Shown here piece by piece: positions 20,412 through 57,896 of a stretch of 64,000 nucleotides of DNA. The position numbers and the translations under genes are program-made. Each line of letters begins with the position of its first letter. Within the stretch, counting starts at the first letter, position 1. This DNA comes from an uncultured Gammaproteobacteria bacterium (lineage in GTDB: Bacteria; Patescibacteriota; Microgenomatia; UBA12405). Below the pieces are notes generated by a model. The model was not told where the DNA came from. It did no database searches and was given only the letters and a program-made list of their open reading frames with translations. The stretch is taken from positions 15,046 through 79,045 of the forward strand of contig CAZICU010000001.1 of the NCBI GenBank assembly GCA_964537905.1. Direction: 5' to 3'.

Positions 20412-20483
20412 GCCTGAGTAGCTCAGTGGTAGAGCAATCCTTTTGTAAAGGAAAGGTCGTGAGTTCGACTCCCACCTCAGGCT
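20412..20483 (+). tRNA. tRNA-Thr (anticodon UGU)
   Basis: Manual cloverleaf: acceptor GCCTGAG/CTCAGGC, D-arm GCTC-AGTGGTA-GAGC, anticodon loop TTTGTAA, variable loop AGGTC, T-loop TTCGACT. CCA not encoded. Confidence 0.8.
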
Positions 20484-20529: not shown

Positions 20530-20602
20530 GCCCGGATAGCTCAGTTGGTAGAGCATCCCCTTGGTAAGGGGAAGGTCATGAATTCGAGTTTCATTCCGGG
20601 CT
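20530..20602 (+). tRNA. tRNA-Thr (anticodon GGU)
   Basis: Acceptor GCCCGGA/TCCGGGC, D-arm GCTC-AGTTGGTA-GAGC, anticodon stem TCCCC/GGGGA with loop TTGGTAA, T-arm ATGAA-TTCGAGT-TTCAT. Confidence 0.85.
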
Positions 20603-21369: not shown

Positions 21370-21452
21370 GGAGGGGTGCTCCGAATGGTAAGGAACTTGT
21401 TTTGAAAACAAGCGTCAGCAATGACATGCAGGTTCAACTCCTGTCCCCTCCG
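21370..21452 (+). tRNA. tRNA-Ser (anticodon UGA), class II with long variable arm
   Basis: Acceptor GGAGGGG/CCCCTCC, 3-bp D-stem, anticodon stem CTTGT/ACAAG with loop TTTGAAA, long variable arm, T-arm GCAGG-TTCAACT-CCTGT, discriminator G. Confidence 0.7.
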
Positions 21453-29334: not shown

Positions 29335-29406
29335 CAGGCCCATGAGGATTCGAACCTCAAATGGAGATTTTGGAGATCCCAGTGATAACCATTTCACTAT
29401 GGGCCT
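29335..29406 (-). tRNA. tRNA-Trp (anticodon CCA)
   Basis: Reverse complement AGGCCCA-TA-GTGA-AATGGTTA-TCAC-T-GGGAT-CTCCAAA-ATCTC-CATT-TGAGG-TTCGAAT-CCTCA-TGGGCCT-G folds as a canonical cloverleaf. Confidence 0.8.
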
Positions 29407-30131: not shown

Positions 30132-30204
30132 TGGACCCAAGGGGACTCGAACCCCTGACCTTCCCCATGCCATGGGGACGCGCTACCAACTACGCTATGG
30201 GCCC
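30132..30204 (-). tRNA. tRNA-Ala (anticodon GGC) with G3:U70 identity pair
   Basis: Reverse complement GGGCCCA-TA-GCGT-AGTTGGTA-GCGC-G-TCCCC-ATGGCAT-GGGGA-AGGTC-AGGGG-TTCGAGT-CCCCT-TGGGTCC-A. Confidence 0.8.
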
Positions 30205-38943: not shown

Positions 38944-39888
38944 TTAACAAAACGGACACTTTTCTCCCATATACCAGCAACCACATTTTTCACATTCTTT
39001 ATATCCATCTGGTACTTCTCCAAATTTCACTTGACCATCAGCCAAAATATAATAACCAATTTTTTCCCCAAACTCACCTATTCTAGTTGTAACTGCACAT
39101 CCATAACTATCTACTTGAGATACTTTTTGCATTTCTCCATACATATAATTTCTCAAATCATATCTACTTAAAACTTCACCACCTTTAATCATATATCCCT
39201 TAGATATTGCCTTATAACAAGCTGAATATAATCGAAAAATTAAATTAGAATTTTCTGTTAATTTTTGACCAAAATTATCTTTAAATTCATTTATATAATC
39301 TTTAACTACGCTTTCAATTAACTCCATACTACAAGAATTTTTTACTTCACTTAATCTAAACAAATCAAATAATTCATTTAATTTTAAATCTGAACTAATA
39401 GGAGAGGCTAAAATTTTAAAATTATCTTCTACTTTTGGTTCTCCAGATAAAAATGATCTTATTTGATTCATACTTTCAAAATCATTTTTAACTACAATTC
39501 TATTCCAAACAACTCGACCATCATCTACTACTCGCCAAAAATCAACACAATCACTTGGATAATAATATTTTTCATTTTTTGGACTAAATCCAATCCATGT
39601 TGAATCAGGATTTTCTCTCAAACCTTGTTCAATCTTTCTTATCGATTCAATTTCTTCATTCCTTCCCCCTCTAGCTGTCAACTCTACTATTTTCTGACCC
39701 GATTTAGGATCATACAAATTACCCTCATCATCAACTCGATATTCCAAAGTAAACTGAACCATTCCAAAATCTTCTGCTAGCTGAGTTTTTAATTCCTGAG
39801 CCAAATTCTCTCTTCTCCCCGACTCGTCAAGTCTTTCTAAAAATTTTTTTTCTTTTTCTGGTGAAAACCCAGTTGTTTCTTGATTCAT
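38944..39888 (-). CDS. Uncharacterised protein with C-terminal CxxC...CxxC zinc ribbon (ATG at 39888; ORF track uses TTG at 39903)
   Basis: No family recognised. Sits between the pduO-like gene and thyX, immediately downstream of a cobalamin-riboswitch-like element. SD GGAGAG 8 nt before ATG. Confidence 0.45.
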   Translation of the reverse strand: MNQETTGFSPEKEKKFLERLDESGRRENLAQELKTQLAEDFGMVQFTLEYRVDDEGNLYDPKSGQKIVELTARGGRNEEIESIRKIEQGLRENPDSTWIGFSPKNEKYYYPSDCVDFWRVVDDGRVVWNRIVVKNDFESMNQIRSFLSGEPKVEDNFKILASPISSDLKLNELFDLFRLSEVKNSCSMELIESVVKDYINEFKDNFGQKLTENSNLIFRLYSACYKAISKGYMIKGGEVLSRYDLRNYMYGEMQKVSQVDSYGCAVTTRIGEFGEKIGYYILADGQVKFGEVPDGYKECEKCGCWYMGEKCPFC

Positions 39889-39904
39889 ATTTTTACTCTC
39901 CAAA

Positions 39905-40075
39905 TTGCTTACAACTTGGTCCTCGACTTTAGTCGGGATGCTCGAAAGTTTTGGTCATCCGGCTTCGACCGACGAAGCTTTGCGAAGGCGGTTTTTACAC
40001 CCCCATCTTTGCTCCGACAATCACACGGTTGCGGCACAGCTCAGGATTCTAACCTGATTCCCCATCACCCGCCAT
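39905..40075 (-). promoter_or_regulatory. Candidate cobalamin (B12) riboswitch, compact variant, with expression platform hairpins
   Basis: Minus-strand RNA AUGGGGAAUCAGGUUAGAAUCCUGAGCUGUGCCGCAACCGUGUGA matches the cobalamin core (GGGAA..GGUG.AAUCC...C.G..CCCGC.ACUGU.A). A canonical B12 box is not obvious. P1 GGCGG/CCGCC. Downstream alternative pairings CUUCG/CGAAG. Confidence 0.5.
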
Positions 40076-40114
40076 AGTTTTAACGACAGCGGGCATTAAT
40101 AATTTATTTTATCA

Positions 40115-40612
40115 CTAAAATTTTGATCTCCACATAAAATATAAAAATTTTGAAGTTCTATTAAAATAAGTCAAAATATTTTCATCAAATTTTAATCCCT
40201 CTTCCTCTTCTCTAACTAATTTTAGAGTTACCACTCTTGTTTCTGCTTCTCTACAAGCAGTTCGACATAAATTAATTCTTGATTCTATTTCATTTTCACC
40301 TGGAATTAAAAAACTATCTAAATTGCCAATTCTATTTTGAAAAACCATAATATCTTCATCCAATTCACCTATTCTTTTTTTTCCATTTTTCCACTCACTA
40401 CCAGTAAATAAATTCCCCATCACTTCACGTAAATCACTTTGAATTTGTTTAAGTTTTCCATTTTCTTTTTTATTTTCTAAAACCACTCTTGCCAAACCTA
40501 ATCTTGCCTGAAATTCATCAATTCCTCCTACTGCTTTTACGAATGGCGAATCTTTATTTACATCAAGTAAACATTCTCCACAAGTTATTCCTTTATCTCC
40601 TTTTTCACTCAT
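40115..40612 (-). CDS. ATP:cob(I)alamin adenosyltransferase, PduO/MMAB type
   Basis: N-terminal MSEKGDKGITCGE...AVGGIDEFQARLGLAR mirrors the PduO motif (TGDKGETSL...G.VDELNS.IGLAR). Confidence 0.7.
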   Translation of the reverse strand: MSEKGDKGITCGECLLDVNKDSPFVKAVGGIDEFQARLGLARVVLENKKENGKLKQIQSDLREVMGNLFTGSEWKNGKKRIGELDEDIMVFQNRIGNLDSFLIPGENEIESRINLCRTACREAETRVVTLKLVREEEEGLKFDENILTYFNRTSKFLYFMWRSKF

Positions 40613-40673: not shown

Positions 40674-43181
40674 TTATGAGCATTTTGAATAACCACAAAA
40701 CACATTTGTACATTTAAAACAGCCTTCTTCAGCTCGAAGTGGACTACCACAATCAGGACAAGCTCCAAATTTAGTTTCTGCCTGAGTCAACTCATCATTA
40801 CTTTTAACTACATCTATTTGATTTAAATCATTTTGATCACCAAAAATACTTAATTGTTCACCTCGAGAAATTTCCAAAACCGATTTACCAACTGCATCAA
40901 ACATACTCAAAACTGCTCCATTTCCCATTCCTGTTTTTTGCCCACAAGAAATTCCAATTAATTCACCCGAAATTTCATCTAAATTTGCCCCGTATTTCAA
41001 AGCCAAAGAAGCTAATCTTCCAGTCACTTCTGCCGAAGCCGCTAAATATCCTCCAGATTTACCTAAATTAACAAAAACTTCTACTGGACCATCCCCTTCT
41101 TCGTAAAAAATCGAAGTATAAACGCTACCCACATCACATTTTTTCTTGACTCTAATACCACTTGCCACGATTGGTGTTGCTTTTTTCTTTGGTGGTGCAA
41201 CAATCATTTTTTCCTCATTTTTTTCATCTTTACTTTTTATCTTTTGAATTATTTCAGAAGATCTTGAACCACTTCTATAAATAGTAATTCCTTTAGTTCC
41301 TAGAGAGTAAGACTTTAAATAAGCTTTTCTTACATCATCCACTGTCGCTGTTTCTGGTAAATTAATTGTCTTTGACACTGCATTATCAGTAAATTCTTGA
41401 AAGGCCGCCTGAACTTTTATATGCCATTCTGGATCAATTTCTAATGCTGTTGTAAAAACTTTTTTAATATCTTCAGGAACTTCATCTATTCCCTTCAAAA
41501 TTCCCCCATTTTTAACAACCTTTTCTATTAATTCTTCAGAATAAATTCCTCTTGTTTTCAATTCTTCTATCAGAACTGCATTTAAATAATAAAGTGTCTT
41601 TCCTTCAACTGTATTTTTTTGATATCCCAAAGAAAATACTGGTTCAATCCCTGAACTAGCATCCGCCAAAACACTAATTGTTCCTGTTGGAGCAATTGTC
41701 GTCAAAGACATATTTCTTGGTTTATAATCAGTTCCAGCAAACAAACTTACTTCCCATGATGGGAATACACCTCTGGTTTTAGCCAATTCACAAGTTGCTT
41801 CTCTGGCCGATTCAGTCACAAATTTCATTATTTTCTTAGCCCAAGCAATTCCTTCTTCTGAATCATATTTCACTCCTAATTTAAATAAAGTATCCGCAAA
41901 ACCCATCACCCCAAATCCAATTCTTCTAAATTTACTCACTGTTTCCCTAATTTTTTGAACTGGAAATTCATTTATTTCCACTACGTTATCTAAAAAATGC
42001 ACCCCCATAAAAATTACTTTCTTTAATTCCTCCCAATTAATATCGCCCTTTTTAAGGGAGATGTCAGCACTAGCTGACAGAGGGTTTTGAAGGACGAACT
42101 TTGCCAAATTTACACTCCCTAAATTACAGGCATCATAGGGCAAAAGTGGTTGTTCTCCACATGGATTAGTCGCTTCAATTCGACCCACACTTGGTACTGG
42201 ATTTGAAGTTTTATCATTCATTCTATCAATAAAAACCAAACCTGGATCACCAAATTGCCAAGCCAATCTCGTCACTAAATTAAAAACTTTATAAGCATTT
42301 AATTTCATTGTTGCCTCTTTAGTTCTAGGATTTATTAGTTCATATCCTTCACCTTCTTGAGTTGCTTTTGCCCAATCATAAAGTTTTTTAGTGCCTGCTT
42401 CTATTTCTCTTAATCTAACCTCTGTATTACGACTTCCTTCGGCTTGTCTTATTTCTTCTACTATATCTTCTGGAACTAAATCGTCAGTCACAAATTTTTT
42501 GTCCGACTCAATTTTACTCATAAAAACATCCGTCACCGCCAAAGAAATATTGAAATTAGTCAAAGTCCATTCGTCTAATTTTGATACTGCAAATCTTAAT
42601 ACATCAGGATGATCAATCGACAACATTCCCATATTAGCCCCTCGTCTCATTCCTCCTTGTTTAATTTGAGCTGTTACATCATTATAAGCTTGCATAAAAC
42701 TCACCGGTCCAACAGTCGTTCCTCCACTCGACTTAATATAATCACCACTTGGTCTTAATCTCGAAAAAGAAAAACCAGTTCCTCCACCACTTTTATGAAT
42801 CATGGCCATATTTGTCATGGTTTCTAAGATTGATTCCATTGAATCATCAATTGGCAGCACAAAACAACCTGACAATTGTTGATGTGTTCCACCAGCATTT
42901 ACCAAACAAGGAGTATTTGGCAAAAATTTCTGTTCTGCCATCAAATAATAAAAATCCTTCGATAATGCTTCAATTTCTGTCTCACTTTTACCAAAGTTTT
43001 TATCTCCTCCAGCTATTGCTCTAGCCACCCTCCAAAAAATATCTTTTACCTTTTCATAAGCTTTTCCTTCCTCATTTTTTCTGGAATATCTTGTTTCTGC
43101 AATATATTTAGCATTTTCCGACAATTGCGGTTCCATTAATCCTTGATTATTAATATTTTGACGAATATCTGTATCTGTCAT
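40674..43181 (-). CDS. nrdJ: Adenosylcobalamin-dependent ribonucleotide reductase (class II, NrdJ) with C-terminal zinc ribbon
   Basis: LSGCFVLPIDDSMESI, catalytic NPCGEQPLLPYDACNLGSVNL, C-terminal CPDCG..CFKC. Confidence 0.9.
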   Translation of the reverse strand: MTDTDIRQNINNQGLMEPQLSENAKYIAETRYSRKNEEGKAYEKVKDIFWRVARAIAGGDKNFGKSETEIEALSKDFYYLMAEQKFLPNTPCLVNAGGTHQQLSGCFVLPIDDSMESILETMTNMAMIHKSGGGTGFSFSRLRPSGDYIKSSGGTTVGPVSFMQAYNDVTAQIKQGGMRRGANMGMLSIDHPDVLRFAVSKLDEWTLTNFNISLAVTDVFMSKIESDKKFVTDDLVPEDIVEEIRQAEGSRNTEVRLREIEAGTKKLYDWAKATQEGEGYELINPRTKEATMKLNAYKVFNLVTRLAWQFGDPGLVFIDRMNDKTSNPVPSVGRIEATNPCGEQPLLPYDACNLGSVNLAKFVLQNPLSASADISLKKGDINWEELKKVIFMGVHFLDNVVEINEFPVQKIRETVSKFRRIGFGVMGFADTLFKLGVKYDSEEGIAWAKKIMKFVTESAREATCELAKTRGVFPSWEVSLFAGTDYKPRNMSLTTIAPTGTISVLADASSGIEPVFSLGYQKNTVEGKTLYYLNAVLIEELKTRGIYSEELIEKVVKNGGILKGIDEVPEDIKKVFTTALEIDPEWHIKVQAAFQEFTDNAVSKTINLPETATVDDVRKAYLKSYSLGTKGITIYRSGSRSSEIIQKIKSKDEKNEEKMIVAPPKKKATPIVASGIRVKKKCDVGSVYTSIFYEEGDGPVEVFVNLGKSGGYLAASAEVTGRLASLALKYGANLDEISGELIGISCGQKTGMGNGAVLSMFDAVGKSVLEISRGEQLSIFGDQNDLNQIDVVKSNDELTQAETKFGACPDCGSPLRAEEGCFKCTNVFCGYSKCS

Positions 43182-43624
43182 TTTTTCTTAAATTCAACTA
43201 ATAATTTTTTAAATTCTTCAATAGAATTTAGGTCTAAATAAACCGAGGCAAATCGAATGTAAGCCATTGGATCAACTCCTTTTAATTTTTCCATCAACAT
43301 TTTTCCAATTTCTCGTGACGGAATTTCAATATCCTTCCAATTCAAAAGTTTCATTTCAATTTCATCAATAATTTTTTCTCTCTCCTCAGCTGTCATCCGC
43401 CAACAAGCTTTTTCCAAACACCTTTCTAGTTTATTTCTTGAATAATCTTCTACTTTTCCTGATTTTTTAATTACTTTTAAGCTGATATTTTCCACTCTTT
43501 CATAAGTTGTAAACCGCTTTTTACATTTAACACATTCCCGTCGTCGTCGAGTCGCTTTTCCATCCTCTGCCTCACGACTTTCCAACACATTACTTTCATC
43601 AAAACCGCAATATGGACAAATCAT
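43178..43624 (-). CDS. nrdR: Transcriptional repressor NrdR
   Basis: MICPYCGFDESNVLESR...RRRECVKCKKRFTTYE zinc ribbon plus ATP-cone. Confidence 0.9.
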   Translation of the reverse strand: MICPYCGFDESNVLESREAEDGKATRRRRECVKCKKRFTTYERVENISLKVIKKSGKVEDYSRNKLERCLEKACWRMTAEEREKIIDEIEMKLLNWKDIEIPSREIGKMLMEKLKGVDPMAYIRFASVYLDLNSIEEFKKLLVEFKKK

Positions 43625-43870: not shown

Positions 43871-46405
43871 TTATTTTATTTTTCCTAACCATTTTCTTAT
43901 TTGTCTTTTAATATAAACCAAAGACATTAATAATAATAATAAATAAGCCAAAGTTTCTTTTTTAACTACTTTAATATCATCATTAATTGGACTTTCATAA
44001 ACATAATCATCTTCCGCTCCCAACACTTGTCCTCTCTCTAAAACTATTTTTCTTTTTACCCAAAAATTAGTTTCCGCCACATTTGAGCTGACTTCATTAT
44101 TATTTTCGTCTAATCCTACAATCCAAGTTTTAGTAGTGTATTTACCTCCAGCTTCACTCATCACCATTCCAAAATCCATTTTACCGGCTCTATTAATCTC
44201 AATATCTCCTAAATATAAACCATTTTCTGACCATAAATTTCCCTGTTCATCAAAAATTTGATGAATCAAAATTGCTTCCTTCATTTTTCCCTCTCCCACG
44301 TTTTTTACTTCAATCAAAAAAGTCACCGTATCATTTGGTAAGACATAATTATTAACATTATTTTTTGCTTCCAACACTATTTTTGTTTGGCGATCAGAAA
44401 CGTTGTTTTTGCTTTCCTCATTTTGTTCCCTTTTTTCAATTATCGGATACCAAATTATTGTTGCCCAAACACTTTGATTATTATTTAAATTAGATTCAGT
44501 TGTTTTTGTCTGAACCATGGCTAATATCTCTACCTGAACATCTTTTTTTTCTAATCCATCAAGTTTTGCCGTCAAATTAAAACTATTGTTAGTATTAGCC
44601 GCTAAATTATTTATTTTCCATTTTAATTTATTTCCTTCTCGTACCAATGGTAAACCACTATTATCAGCGACATAAATAAGTTCTTTTGGTAAATCAATTT
44701 CCAAATCTGCTTCATTTGCTATTTCATATCCCAAATTACTATAATTTATTAGATAAATTATTTCCTCTCCACTTTGACCACCTTTCTTGTCAGCACTCAA
44801 ACCCACTGTCAAATCCGGATAAGCAAAAATTATATCCCCTTTCCAATTACCCAAAACATTTATCATTCCCCAAAACCAATCACTCCCCCAAACATTTACA
44901 TTTATTAAATTAGTTAAATTAGCAATTGACCACGCCGACCCACTATTAATAGTACCGTTATTAGCTCCACTTATTTGATTTCCGCCTGAATCCGCCGTCA
45001 CTAAAATTGAATTATTTACTTGAGCGATATTATTATTTATTATCAAATCATTTTCATTCTGACAATTTAAACATCCATCCTCATTTAATACAAACAAAAG
45101 TTGATTATTACTAATGTCTTCAACTGATCCTGGAAAACTCCAATTATAAATTTTACCGCTACTTTCCCCTAAAACATTTAACTGTAACCACATCTGGTTG
45201 TTCACTTCAGCATTTAAATTTATTACCGACAAATCATTACTATAAGCCTGAGCCGTTCCTGTTTCAATCGTTGAATTATTTACATTTATGGTTGCATTAT
45301 TGCCACTATTTGAATCCGTAACAACCGTATTATTCAAAACCGCTTGATTATTATTTATCGTCACCGATCCATCTGAATTGCCACTAATTTCCCTTGTTTG
45401 GAATTTTTCCGGATTAGGTAAAACAATATCGCCTAAATTTTCTCCCAACACATTGATCACTCCAATAAAAAATTGGCCTCCAACCAAATTTGTATTTACT
45501 AAATTAATTACATTAGCCACCGCTGTTGCCTTTCCCGTCACTATTAAAACTTCATCTCCTCCAACCACAGTATTATTTCCACTGGTCGCTACCACTGTCA
45601 CCACATTATTTAAATTAGCCAAATTTTTATTACTAATAATCACCATTTTTTCATCATTTGATCCGGCTTCAATTATCATTGCTCCCTCTCCTGCCATTAA
45701 CTTTAACCACATTTGATTTAAATCCAAATTGGCCCATTCTTGGTCAAAATTATTAATTAAATAAATTCCTAAATTTGTCCCTACCACATTAGTATTTATC
45801 AAATTAATCACATTAGCATAGGCATTTGCCTCACCACTATTTACTGAAACATTAGCCTTACTAGTTATTGTTTCATTTTCTCCAGTGGTCGCTAATGATT
45901 CATTTTCTGTTGTTACTTCAGCTTGATTATTATTTTCTATTTTCTCCACTTCAGATTTTATTTCTTCCTCGGAAGTATCAATTATTGTTGTTGCCACCTC
46001 TAAATTATTTGTATTAACTTGATTCTGATTTGTTGTTCCCGCCGTCGCTCCACCAGTATCAATATTTATCTCCGTATCATTGTCATTACTGCTTTGATTT
46101 TCTCCAGTGGTTGCCACTGAATTATTCTCCACTTCTAAATTAGCTTGATTATTATTTTGATTACTACAATCTATTTCCAATTGACAACCATCAACCGTTC
46201 CTGTCGTTTTTCCTGAATTATTATTAACCTCATTATTCGATTCTACTTCAGCCACTGCCTCTCCAGTAACAATTGACTGCTCTGCTATCGGAATTTCTGT
46301 TGTTTCAGATGTCACTTGTGGTGGTACTTCGGATGATACCTCTGTCGTTTCTTCGGCTTGAATTGGTGACCACAAAAATCCCCATAGCAGAAAAATCAAA
46401 CTCAA
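43871..46405 (-). CDS. Large secreted/cell-surface protein (844 aa): signal peptide, E/T/N-rich region, 4 copies of a ~45-aa A(N/Y)ANVINL(I/V)NTN(V/L)VG module, C-terminal hydrophobic anchor
   Basis: ORF; internal repeats read from the translation. C-terminal LAYLLLLLMSLVYIKRQIRK anchor. Confidence 0.55.
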   Translation of the reverse strand: MSLIFLLWGFLWSPIQAEETTEVSSEVPPQVTSETTEIPIAEQSIVTGEAVAEVESNNEVNNNSGKTTGTVDGCQLEIDCSNQNNNQANLEVENNSVATTGENQSSNDNDTEINIDTGGATAGTTNQNQVNTNNLEVATTIIDTSEEEIKSEVEKIENNNQAEVTTENESLATTGENETITSKANVSVNSGEANAYANVINLINTNVVGTNLGIYLINNFDQEWANLDLNQMWLKLMAGEGAMIIEAGSNDEKMVIISNKNLANLNNVVTVVATSGNNTVVGGDEVLIVTGKATAVANVINLVNTNLVGGQFFIGVINVLGENLGDIVLPNPEKFQTREISGNSDGSVTINNNQAVLNNTVVTDSNSGNNATINVNNSTIETGTAQAYSNDLSVINLNAEVNNQMWLQLNVLGESSGKIYNWSFPGSVEDISNNQLLFVLNEDGCLNCQNENDLIINNNIAQVNNSILVTADSGGNQISGANNGTINSGSAWSIANLTNLINVNVWGSDWFWGMINVLGNWKGDIIFAYPDLTVGLSADKKGGQSGEEIIYLINYSNLGYEIANEADLEIDLPKELIYVADNSGLPLVREGNKLKWKINNLAANTNNSFNLTAKLDGLEKKDVQVEILAMVQTKTTESNLNNNQSVWATIIWYPIIEKREQNEESKNNVSDRQTKIVLEAKNNVNNYVLPNDTVTFLIEVKNVGEGKMKEAILIHQIFDEQGNLWSENGLYLGDIEINRAGKMDFGMVMSEAGGKYTTKTWIVGLDENNNEVSSNVAETNFWVKRKIVLERGQVLGAEDDYVYESPINDDIKVVKKETLAYLLLLLMSLVYIKRQIRKWLGKIK

Positions 46406-46505: not shown

Positions 46506-47066
46506 TTAGTCTTGCCAAGTGATTGGTCTAACATTCACCAAAGTTCGACTAGAAACATTTGATCCAGCATTTCCAGTTACAATTGTGCTTCCTCCGACTA
46601 AATTTAAAGCTCCAGCCGCAACTCCAATAGACTTTTCTACCGTCGTTACGTTAGCTTGTTGATTAGTCCCAGAATCTGCATCTGCCTCGGTTATACCTTT
46701 AACCTCAACCGTATTAATTTTTGTTGGAGTTGTCATACAACCATAACAATAAGTCATACCACAACCACAAGCATCAGCATTAGCAATAGTCAAAGAACTG
46801 GCATTTGCATAAGCATTACCAGTAATAATAGTCTGACGATTCAAACCGCTAGCCGACAAAGCTAATACTTCTACTGATTTTGTTACCTCCGTCTGATTAG
46901 CTTGTACATTGCCGCCTGTATTTGCAGTTGCCACTGTTTGTGAGTTAATTTTTACTGTATTCACTTCTGGCATTTGAAAACTAGGCATATAATATGCCAT
47001 AGCTGGAACAGCAAAAGCCAACAAAGCTAGAGTAATTCCACCTAAACTAATTATCTTTTTTAACAT
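46506..47066 (-). CDS. Secreted protein (186 aa) with two copies of the TGNAxxNxSSxTxxN module found in the 844-aa neighbour
   Basis: Signal peptide ALLAFAVPAMA; repeat similarity by eye. Confidence 0.45.
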   Translation of the reverse strand: MLKKIISLGGITLALLAFAVPAMAYYMPSFQMPEVNTVKINSQTVATANTGGNVQANQTEVTKSVEVLALSASGLNRQTIITGNAYANASSLTIANADACGCGMTYCYGCMTTPTKINTVEVKGITEADADSGTNQQANVTTVEKSIGVAAGALNLVGGSTIVTGNAGSNVSSRTLVNVRPITWQD

Positions 47067-57699: not shown

Positions 57700-57856
57700 T
57701 TTTTAATTATTTCTGTTATAATTCCCCATCTAACCGAAGACAGCAGGTTTAGTATTCCGAAACTTTAGTGAAGGATACTCATAAATCCCGCCGAGGCAAA
57801 ACAATTTATTTTGTTTTTATATAATCCTCGCTTCTTCGGCGAGGCTTTTTTTTGTT
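57700..57856 (+). promoter_or_regulatory. rplJ (L10) leader with terminator/antiterminator alternative hairpins
   Basis: cccgccgaggc (57787-97) can pair with either arm of the terminator hairpin cctcgc-ttcttc-ggcgagg (57826-44) followed by ttttttttg. Confidence 0.45.
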
Positions 57857-57896
57857 TTACTAAAAACTAAAAAGCTAATTACTAATTAACTAAAGA

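Follow-up and report, generated by a model that had tools for sequence, protein, structure and literature searches.

Cobalamin riboswitches are built on a conserved junction core of helices P3 to P6 (PMC7367189), and a kissing loop between L5 and L13 joins the aptamer to the expression platform (PMC7367189, PMC10327014). The Cbl-I class has a P2 loop-stem-loop between P1 and P3 together with a large P6 extension (P7-P11) folding back onto this core, whereas Cbl-II RNAs are without the P2 arm and carry only a short stem-loop on P6 (PMC7367189). In env8 and btuB, formation of the L5-L13 kissing loop depends on corrinoid and stabilises P13, and the ribosome-binding site (RBS) is thereby hidden (PMC10327014, PMC5028336, PMC7367189); L13 of env8 contains a bulge, and the published L5 consensus is UCCCG (PMC10327014). 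B12 riboswitches also occur upstream of B12-independent ribonucleotide reductase (RNR) genes, namely nrdABS of Streptomyces and the class Ia genes of B. halodurans (cited in PMC12528414). Here we analysed an element of this kind in a 64,000-nt window of an uncultured bacterium (GCA_964537905.1, contig CAZICU010000001.1, positions 15,046 to 79,045), where it lies on the minus strand (39886..40094) directly upstream of an orphan gene, hereafter X. We hold with good confidence that 40094-39886 is a cobalamin riboswitch that would repress X translation in a B12-dependent manner, a view in which both the ligand and the direction of control are what we infer from the analysis.

A sequence-only reading of this DNA had placed a cobalamin-riboswitch-like element at 39905-40075. 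The element is indeed there, including the conserved RNA block that had been quoted (minus strand, ~40066-40022), and its true extent is wider, from 40094 to the X start codon at 39886. The leader fold is more stable than that of shuffled sequence (z = -3.4). At the Rfam gathering thresholds, the whole window gave only tRNAs and an L10 leader, with no cobalamin match. A permissive scan of 39850-40160 aligned the full RF00174 model (1-189) to 40104-39931 on the minus strand at 26.3 bits, with an E-value of 4.8e-5 that is valid for this 311-nt search only. Gathering cut-offs in the cobalamin clan (CL00101) are 31.5 bits for RF00174 and 36.5 bits for RF01689. The covariance-model check proposed by the sequence-only reading thus gave a full-length alignment and a sub-threshold score, formally the outcome that the reading had taken as speaking against a riboswitch. 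We attribute the low score to the 64 nt inserted in P6 and to an additional hairpin at the 5' end, since the conserved core is intact and each of its positions is that of orthologues above the cut-off.

As the Rfam score of the window copy was inconclusive alone, orthologous leaders were examined. Seventy loci came from scans of species-representative genomes and metagenomes, and nine more from exact-protein look-ups (loci are designated L plus a number). Rfam cut-offs were passed in 15 of 23 scanned loci, with RF01689 at 38-45 bits or RF00174 at 32-42 bits, in all cases directly 5' of an X homologue; four orthologous leaders passed RF00174 and most orthologues passed RF01689. A custom covariance model built from 19 insertion-free orthologous leaders gave exactly one match per locus, always directly 5' of an X homologue. 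In the window it matched once only, at 40074-39908 on the minus strand (42.9 bits; E ~4e-6 for the 365 kb searched). Altogether, the element stands directly 5' of an X homologue in 71 of the 72 related loci with usable upstream DNA. The exception is L071, whose contig starts in low-complexity repeats 230 nt upstream, so that the P13/L13 and terminator part alone is visible. What this analysis shows directly is the element itself with its helices, the complementarity of the kissing loop and the strict association with X. Together with the scores above the Rfam cut-offs, the linkage and the helix covariation described below bear out the assignment of a cobalamin riboswitch ahead of X.

The window copy begins with a P2-like hairpin, GCCCGCUGUCG-UUAAAAC-UAUGGCGGGU (40067..40094), found in the minimum free energy (MFE) and centroid folds and aligned to P2 of RF00174. 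It is shared with L035, where U-G to C-G and G-U to G-C changes occur, and is missing from most orthologues. The conserved core GGGGAA (40058..40063) aligns to GGGAA of RF00174 and is kept in the leader alignments. The P4/L4 hairpin UCAGG-UUAGAAU-CCUGA (40041..40057) has 95.7% of its cells paired across 43 distinct leaders, with two-sided changes in four of its five pairs; the L009 lineage has an additional insertion in L4. P5 (UG/CA, 40030..40038), which encloses L5 = UGCCG (40036-40032), is 100% paired and shows U-A to A-U swaps. P6 (39959..40028), formed by CCG at 40028-40026 and CGG at 39961-39959 around the 64-nt extension (40025-39962), is also 100% paired, and its middle pair exchanges G-C, C-G and U-A across leaders. 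Over the same 43 leaders, P4-P6 are 96-100% paired, with two-sided changes in six of ten pairs, or in eight of twelve when P3 is included. The P3-P6 covariation score was 0.470 as against 0.166 for column shuffles, none of 500 of which reached it, and register-shifted controls were 22-55% paired.

The B12 box (J6-3), AGCCGGAUGACC at 39953..39964, aligns to AGCCAGGAGACC of RF00174 and is identical in cut-off-passing orthologues such as L005 and L007; the same RF00174 alignment also shows GGGGAA, the P4 hairpin and GCUGUGCCGCAAC. The sequence-only reading had seen no textbook B12 box, a view overturned by this alignment of 39964-39953 to the B12-box columns. Its P1 of GGCGG and CCGCC likewise finds no support: GGCGG forms the 3' side of the P2-like hairpin, CCGCC pairs locally within the P6 extension, and L015 retains GGCGGG without any CCGCC partner. 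A P1 made of 5' AAAG and CUUU was also considered and ruled out, the 5' flank being unconserved, with U-runs at that place in L003 and L012. Far from being unusually compact, as had been claimed, the window copy is among the longest in the family, in which a typical orthologue spans ~90 nt from the core to the AUG. The CUUCG/CGAAG pairings that had been taken as consistent with an expression platform prove to be repeats in the P6 extension, and the platform is instead P13/L13 (39948-39896).

The P6 extension of the window copy contains CUUCG repeats and the CCGCC just mentioned. One of its helices, ACCG/CGGU, shows compensatory changes in L015 and L031, and the remaining internal fold of the extension is uncertain. 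Paired direct repeats CUUCG/CUACG around an A-rich stretch, for example CUUCGCAAAGCUUCG, occur in such extensions in the window (39962-40025), L015 (5795-5940), L031 (2845-2994) and L035 (915-1060), and in L015 they occur in the 5' hairpin as well.

In every leader, the B12 box is followed by a 4-nt strand, L13 (typically CGAGCA) and a complementary purine-rich 4-mer just ahead of the start codon. In the window, the P13 5' strand CUUU (39945..39948) pairs with AGAG (39899-39896), and L13 = CGAGCA (39939..39944) is identified by its complementarity to L5 as the kissing-loop partner. Two further hairpins, UCCCGACUAAAGUCGAGGA and CCAAGUUGUAAGCAAUUUGG, lie within the P13 loop in the MFE fold (39900..39938); the short orthologues lack them, and their L13 is a simple loop of 6 nt. 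The Shine-Dalgarno sequence GGAGAG (39896..39901) stands 7 nt ahead of the AUG and ends in AGAG, which serves as the P13 3' strand. Family-wide, the P13 strand sets are CUUU with AAAG, AGAG or GAAG, CUUC/GAAG, CUUA/UAAG, UUCA/UGAA, CUUG/CAAG and UCC/GGA.

The kissing-loop pairing is conserved in all 44 distinct leaders: nucleotides 1-3 of L5 and 4-6 of L13 are UGC/GCA in 39, GGC/GCC in four and UAC/GUA in one, without a single one-sided break. L5-L13 is thus 100% paired, with compensatory changes in two of the three pairs. L068 has a G-U variant of this pairing, and L078 combines L5 UGACG with L13 CGUAACA, in which all five L5 nucleotides can still pair. Taken together, P5, the kissing loop and P13 are 98.4% paired as against 85.9% in shuffles, with two-sided changes in six pairs and a covariation score of 0.344 versus 0.114 (reached by 0 of 500 shuffles); shifted controls were 28-59% paired. 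This scoring used a rule-based mini-alignment of 26 columns because model-based alignment misplaces the P13 3' strand where hairpins are inserted in L13, and for the long forms it may be biased; the short forms do not depend on the rule.

P13 does not appear in the unconstrained MFE folds of the platforms, which implies that it needs external stabilisation, namely by the kissing loop. The same absence was considered as counter-evidence and set aside, P13 being taken as a weak helix dependent on the kissing loop. No terminator was found on the coding strand of the window leader, and no U-tract follows the P13-loop hairpins. In the most divergent relatives (L058:2760-2790, and likewise L059-L062), the AUG is made up of L13 nucleotide 6 and the two bases that open the P13 3' strand (UUCA-CGAGC-AUG-AA); in these leaders the kissing-loop hairpin would mask the AUG itself and not the Shine-Dalgarno sequence. 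Remote homologues in higher-GC genomes (L072:96-178, L071:152-236) carry a terminator-like hairpin and a U6 tract after P13 (UCC-CGAGCA-GGA). In L072, L13/P13 is complementary to the terminator 5' arm at seven of eight positions and pairs with it in the free fold, and the terminator forms when this segment is blocked. This suggests a variant of the switch that works on transcription, and the fold behaviour matches the repressing model for P. megaterium metE (PMC10327014). The L071 terminator forms with or without the constraint and is uninformative on the direction of control.

By analogy with env8 and btuB, corrinoid binding would stabilise the L5-L13 kissing loop and hence P13. A stabilised P13 would mask GGAGAG and exclude the ribosome from X, because the P13 3' strand belongs to the Shine-Dalgarno sequence. 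In the absence of ligand, P13 would be too weak to form and X would be translated. Production of X would then require both transcription of the NrdR-type operon for deoxynucleoside triphosphates (dNTPs) and a low level of corrinoid. The Shine-Dalgarno sequence within P13, the relatives with the AUG in the hairpin, the lack of P13 in MFE folds and the missing terminator all point to a translational OFF switch as the likely mode of action, a direction that we infer from the layout of the leaders.

Several points weigh against this assignment. The window copy scores below the RF00174 gathering cut-off. P3 is weak, with 2 bp that are 80% paired, and P1 is not identifiable in the leaders, its pairs in the RF00174 alignment being mostly non-canonical. 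The covariation of the kissing loop stems from few independent events, about three lineages plus L078. P13 has just 4 bp, and in the window copy, with its two hairpins inserted in the loop, the 3' strand was set by a positional rule. Finally, activating corrinoid riboswitches exist (PMC10327014).

The low score (26.3 < 31.5 bits), the lack of any match at the gathering threshold and the large insertions in P6 and the P13 loop could be those of a decayed relic that leaves X constitutive. This is barely credible, given that L005, L007 and L015, which pass the cut-offs, have the same conserved core positions, B12 box, L5, L13 and P13 strands, all of them intact in the window copy. The extended architecture is moreover common to L035, L015, L031 and L027, so the insertions are inherited and structured, and the location of the leader in a G+C island and its fold z-score of -3.4 indicate a maintained structure. 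That corrinoid instead raises X expression is very improbable. Substrate induction would be sensible if X processes incoming corrinoid, and the described activating corrinoid riboswitch also uses an L5-L13 kissing loop (PMC10327014). In that example, however, P13 competes with a terminator, whereas in the short forms here only the start codon lies beyond P13. With the Shine-Dalgarno sequence or AUG inside P13/L13, stabilising P13 can only mask; no alternative helix that sequesters the Shine-Dalgarno sequence was found in the free fold or centroid, and the L072 terminator forms once L13/P13 is sequestered. A wider effect, in which high B12 also lowers the downstream genes thyX, tmk and glyA through polarity or mRNA stability, would fit the co-directional arrangement of X, thyX, tmk and glyA with short gaps and no promoter-like enrichment separating them. 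It is nevertheless improbable, since the platform is translational with no terminator in the window, less thymidylate synthesis during B12-dependent RNR activity would be counter-productive, and in other loci unrelated or opposite-strand genes stand between X and thyX. We thus retain translational repression of X as the reading of this leader.

In its class features, the element is an ordinary if divergent cobalamin riboswitch of an already known type. It has the P3-P6 junction core (PMC7367189), with P4 paired in 95.7% of cells and P5 and P6 in all, and the L5-L13 kissing loop that joins aptamer and platform (PMC7367189, PMC10327014) in 44 of 44 distinct leaders. The periphery varies. The window copy, L035, L015, L031 and L027 look Cbl-I-like, the window copy having both the P2-like hairpin (40094-40067) and the 64-nt P6 insertion, for which no correspondence to P7-P11 was matched. 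With these two peripheral elements it falls outside Cbl-II, whereas most orthologues, such as L003-L005, L013 and L029, lack a P2 arm, have a plain P6 loop, score above the RF01689 cut-off and are Cbl-II-like. Among described RNAs, the Cbl-IIa type (env8HyCbl; RF01689, AdoCbl-II) shares the P3-P6 core, the kissing loop with an L13 bulge, which is likewise proposed for the window element, and translational control by a short P13 that holds the RBS (PMC10327014, PMC5028336, PMC7367189). It differs in that the window copy has the P2-like arm and the 64-nt P6 extension, an L5 of UGCCG rather than UCCCG and an unclear P1, and in that the AUG itself lies in L13/P13 in some relatives of the window element. 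The Cbl-I adenosylcobalamin (AdoCbl) riboswitches of E. coli btuB and T. tengcongensis (RF00174) resemble the window copy in the P2 arm, extended P6, B12 box and kissing loop, but the score stays below 31.5 bits, the P6 extension is unmatched to P7-P11 and the P1 pairs are mostly non-canonical. The relationship to the atypical yvrC riboswitch of B. subtilis (PMC7367189) is limited in sequence to the core, and yvrC acts through a transcription terminator whereas the window element would act on translation. As in Streptomyces and B. halodurans, a cobalamin switch operates here in RNR physiology and would repress a gene needed when B12 is scarce. Unlike those riboswitches, the switch described here lies inside an operon and gates an orphan protein of 314 residues, not an RNR, and nrdJ or nrdD is upstream of the switch and not under its control.

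Gene X (38944..39888, minus strand, start AUG 39888-39886) encodes a cysteine-rich protein of 314 aa. Its homologues start at the same Met. Ninety-one close homologues were found, all unnamed, and the only taxon names given were Candidatus Shapirobacteria. A profile search of 1.84 billion proteins gave 53 family representatives, essentially all full-length and of a single architecture, and no known domains were found in the remote members. Pfam returned only DUF5508 (E = 0.0022, 17.7 bits, under the 27-bit cut-off), NCBIfam and PHROG gave no match, and the best hit among Protein Data Bank sequences had E = 0.67. The profile and structure prediction that had been suggested for X thus gave a confident AlphaFold (AF2) model, with a predicted local distance difference test score of 82.3 for the full-length protein and 81.9 for the C-terminal domain, and no family or fold match: the fold search returned weak, non-specific matches, none of them convincing. 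A PAS/Cache-like ligand-binding fold is at most a possibility for the N-terminal part.

Across 35 X sequences, down to 26% identity, the invariant residues are E13, E39, C264, C299, C302 and C311, with C314 conserved in at least 90%. The C-terminal cysteine ribbon that had been noted thus holds family-wide as two CxxC knuckles, a Cys4 site of the form CxxCG...CPxC, to which one lone invariant cysteine, C264, is added. Rubredoxin-type and CSL (Dph3-Kti11) proteins also have Cys4 knuckles; X differs from them in being ~250 residues longer with unrelated N-terminal domains, and shows no significant sequence or fold match to them. Its hydrophilic N-terminus leads us to expect a cytoplasmic protein. 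Judged by its sequence, X would be a cytoplasmic, Cys-rich, putative metal-binding protein confined to Microgenomates-type bacteria of the candidate phyla radiation (CPR). The earlier proposal that X is B12-related gains support from the cobalamin riboswitch that consistently precedes it (71/72 loci), since this riboswitch would directly control X.

In nearly all loci the gene order is nrdR-nrdJ-pduO-[riboswitch]-X, followed by optional genes for a SIMPL protein, a kinase and a dCMP/dCTP deaminase and then by thyX-tmk-glyA. In L055 and L078/L079, nrdJ-pduO is replaced by nrdD (PF13597, 599.6 bits) and a radical-SAM activase gene (nrdG), while riboswitch and X are kept, the former scoring 41.9 and 45.3 bits with RF01689. 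Between L055 and L078, the X proteins share just 34% identity, and the nrdD-nrdG arrangement is therefore old. The flanking nrdR and X...thyX-tmk-glyA genes are seen in L078:2450-6972 and L079:2450-6972, and are outside or absent in L055:1-3969. The dNTP super-operon thus comes in two forms distinguished by the RNR module alone, nrdJ + pduO (class II) or nrdD + nrdG (class III), and the riboswitch-X linkage holds in both RNR contexts down to ~26% protein identity. It follows that the constant unit is [riboswitch + X] within a dNTP operon. The AdoCbl-dependent module described by the sequence-only reading is present in the window and is not obligatory, and the co-occurrence of X with nrdJ and pduO that it had asked about holds in nearly all loci and fails in the nrdD-nrdG ones. 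A membrane-anchored SIMPL/DUF541 protein, absent from the window, is often encoded between X and thyX in relatives (for example L002:7020-7757, L074:3959-4636, L075:7102-7857 and L078:8631-9368).

As to function, the persistence of X beside nrdD-nrdG and without pduO counts against a role confined to AdoCbl and NrdJ, and X is not simply a helper of NrdJ or PduO. We tentatively propose that X is a redox or corrinoid-handling accessory to the supply of RNR cofactors. A reading in which X binds corrinoid, removes its upper ligand or reduces it so as to feed PduO and is feedback-repressed by the finished cofactor, as other B12 salvage genes are, is conceivable but on the unlikely side: X is not homologous to CblC, BtuM, CobA or members of any Pfam B12 family, its fold matches are weak and non-specific, and it is retained at loci without pduO and nrdJ. 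A further, rather improbable, reading makes X a low-potential electron donor to the RNR-activating enzyme encoded next upstream, be it PduO, on which cob(II)alamin would be reduced, or the NrdG activase with its [4Fe-4S] cluster. X might also be a B12-independent back-up for deoxynucleotide supply, made only when B12 is too low for NrdJ. Such a role would follow an established pattern, that of B12 riboswitches over B12-independent RNRs, according to PMC12528414; X is invariably part of the dNTP operon, where it follows the RNR module directly and precedes dcd/thyX/tmk/glyA, and no second RNR was found in the window among the best 25 of 76 families listed. X, however, resembles no RNR, kinase or nucleoside-salvage enzyme, and in L055 and L078/L079 riboswitch and X persist although the neighbouring RNR is already B12-independent, so we regard a back-up as an unlikely, if not negligible, option, about level with corrinoid handling and ahead of a reductant for PduO or NrdG; the rest of the probability goes to some other function. 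A broader formulation, again put forward tentatively, is that X founds a CPR-restricted, B12-responsive class of proteins acting with the RNR of whatever class. If so, X could be a partner of the cofactor-generating enzyme encoded next upstream (PduO or NrdG), as a Cys4-metal electron donor or a corrinoid handler, or else, in organisms unable to make B12, a B12-gated checkpoint or a back-up for the supply of deoxynucleotides. The strict conservation of the pair, even next to a B12-independent reductase, makes X a good candidate for a B12-linked function that has gone unrecognised.

The gene context given earlier (nrdR, class II nrdJ, PduO-type adenosyltransferase, X, thyX, tmk, glyA) was confirmed with Pfam and NCBIfam. 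All genes are on the minus strand. The operon starts with nrdR (43178..43624; PF22811 and ATP-cone) and continues with the B12-dependent class II RNR gene nrdJ (40674..43181; TIGR02504 NrdJ_Z, 653.7 bits, and Pfam RNR domains). The upstream neighbour of the riboswitch is the gene for a PduO-type ATP:cob(I)alamin adenosyltransferase (40115..40612; PF01923, E = 9.4e-31), whose TIGR00636 match in NCBIfam (97.8 bits) is under the cut-off of 108.45. The riboswitch occupies the 226-nt spacer between pduO and X, a G+C island of ~50-55% with flanks of ~17-38%. Downstream, thyX (38859-38140; Pfam Thy1) begins 84 nt after X and is followed by tmk (38150-37461; Pfam Thymidylate_kin) and glyA (37394-36240; Pfam SHMT). 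Among the best 25 of 76 families listed for the window, there was no further recognisable B12 gene: no B12 transporter, in line with the earlier statement that btuB and btuFCD are missing, no NrdD and no B12-binding radical-SAM enzyme.

Other features were noted along the operon and the window. NrdR-box-like inverted repeats stand just upstream of nrdR on the minus strand (GTGTA...TACAC, 43702-43683; CACTA-GCAA-TAGTG, 43683-43670), which suggests autoregulation of the whole operon by NrdR. NrdJ has a Cys-rich C-terminal tail, CPDCGSPLRAEEGCFKCTNVFCGYSKCS (40677-40760); together with the zinc-ribbon proteins NrdR and X, this brings the Cys4-type sites of the operon to three. Immediately ahead of the operon, a pair of minus-strand open reading frames (ORFs; 43871-46405 and 46506-47066) encodes an 844-aa Asn/Thr-rich repetitive protein with a DUF11 domain and, beside it, a secreted-looking protein of 186 aa; both are probably cell-surface proteins. 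The only Rfam features passing cut-offs in the window were the ribosomal protein L10 leader (57716-57863, plus strand; RF00557, 52.4 bits) and five tRNA genes, of which three are on the plus strand (20412-20483, 20530-20602, 21370-21452) and two on the minus strand (29335-29406, 30132-30204). Three GIY-YIG domain ORFs and two T5orf172 matches, among the best 25 families listed, may be homing-endonuclease-like or mobile genes. Several metagenome-assembled genome records with the Shapirobacteria-type operon (L001-L003, L005, L008, L011 and L012) are titled "uncultured Gammaproteobacteria bacterium"; these titles of third-party annotation (TPA) assemblies are probably placeholders or mislabels.

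CPR bacteria have reduced genomes, and to our knowledge their vitamin dependence is little described. A search of the full-text literature found no paper on cobalamin riboswitches of CPR, Patescibacteria or Shapirobacteria. The leaders ahead of this one gene form a natural series, in which the periphery is Cbl-I-like or Cbl-II-like, the platform is translational or of the terminator type, and the start codon may lie within the kissing-loop hairpin; this series could be used to study how the periphery affects corrinoid selectivity. The main interest, however, is protein X as a riboswitch-flagged orphan and not the RNA itself. A riboswitch is an experiment-free pointer that the gene under its control responds to the ligand, and here it marks a closed orphan family as B12-responsive. 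Because the pair has been kept over more than 70% protein divergence and through the swap from class II to class III RNR, X is a concrete, clonable target that may represent a missing step in B12 use or deoxynucleotide supply in these bacteria.

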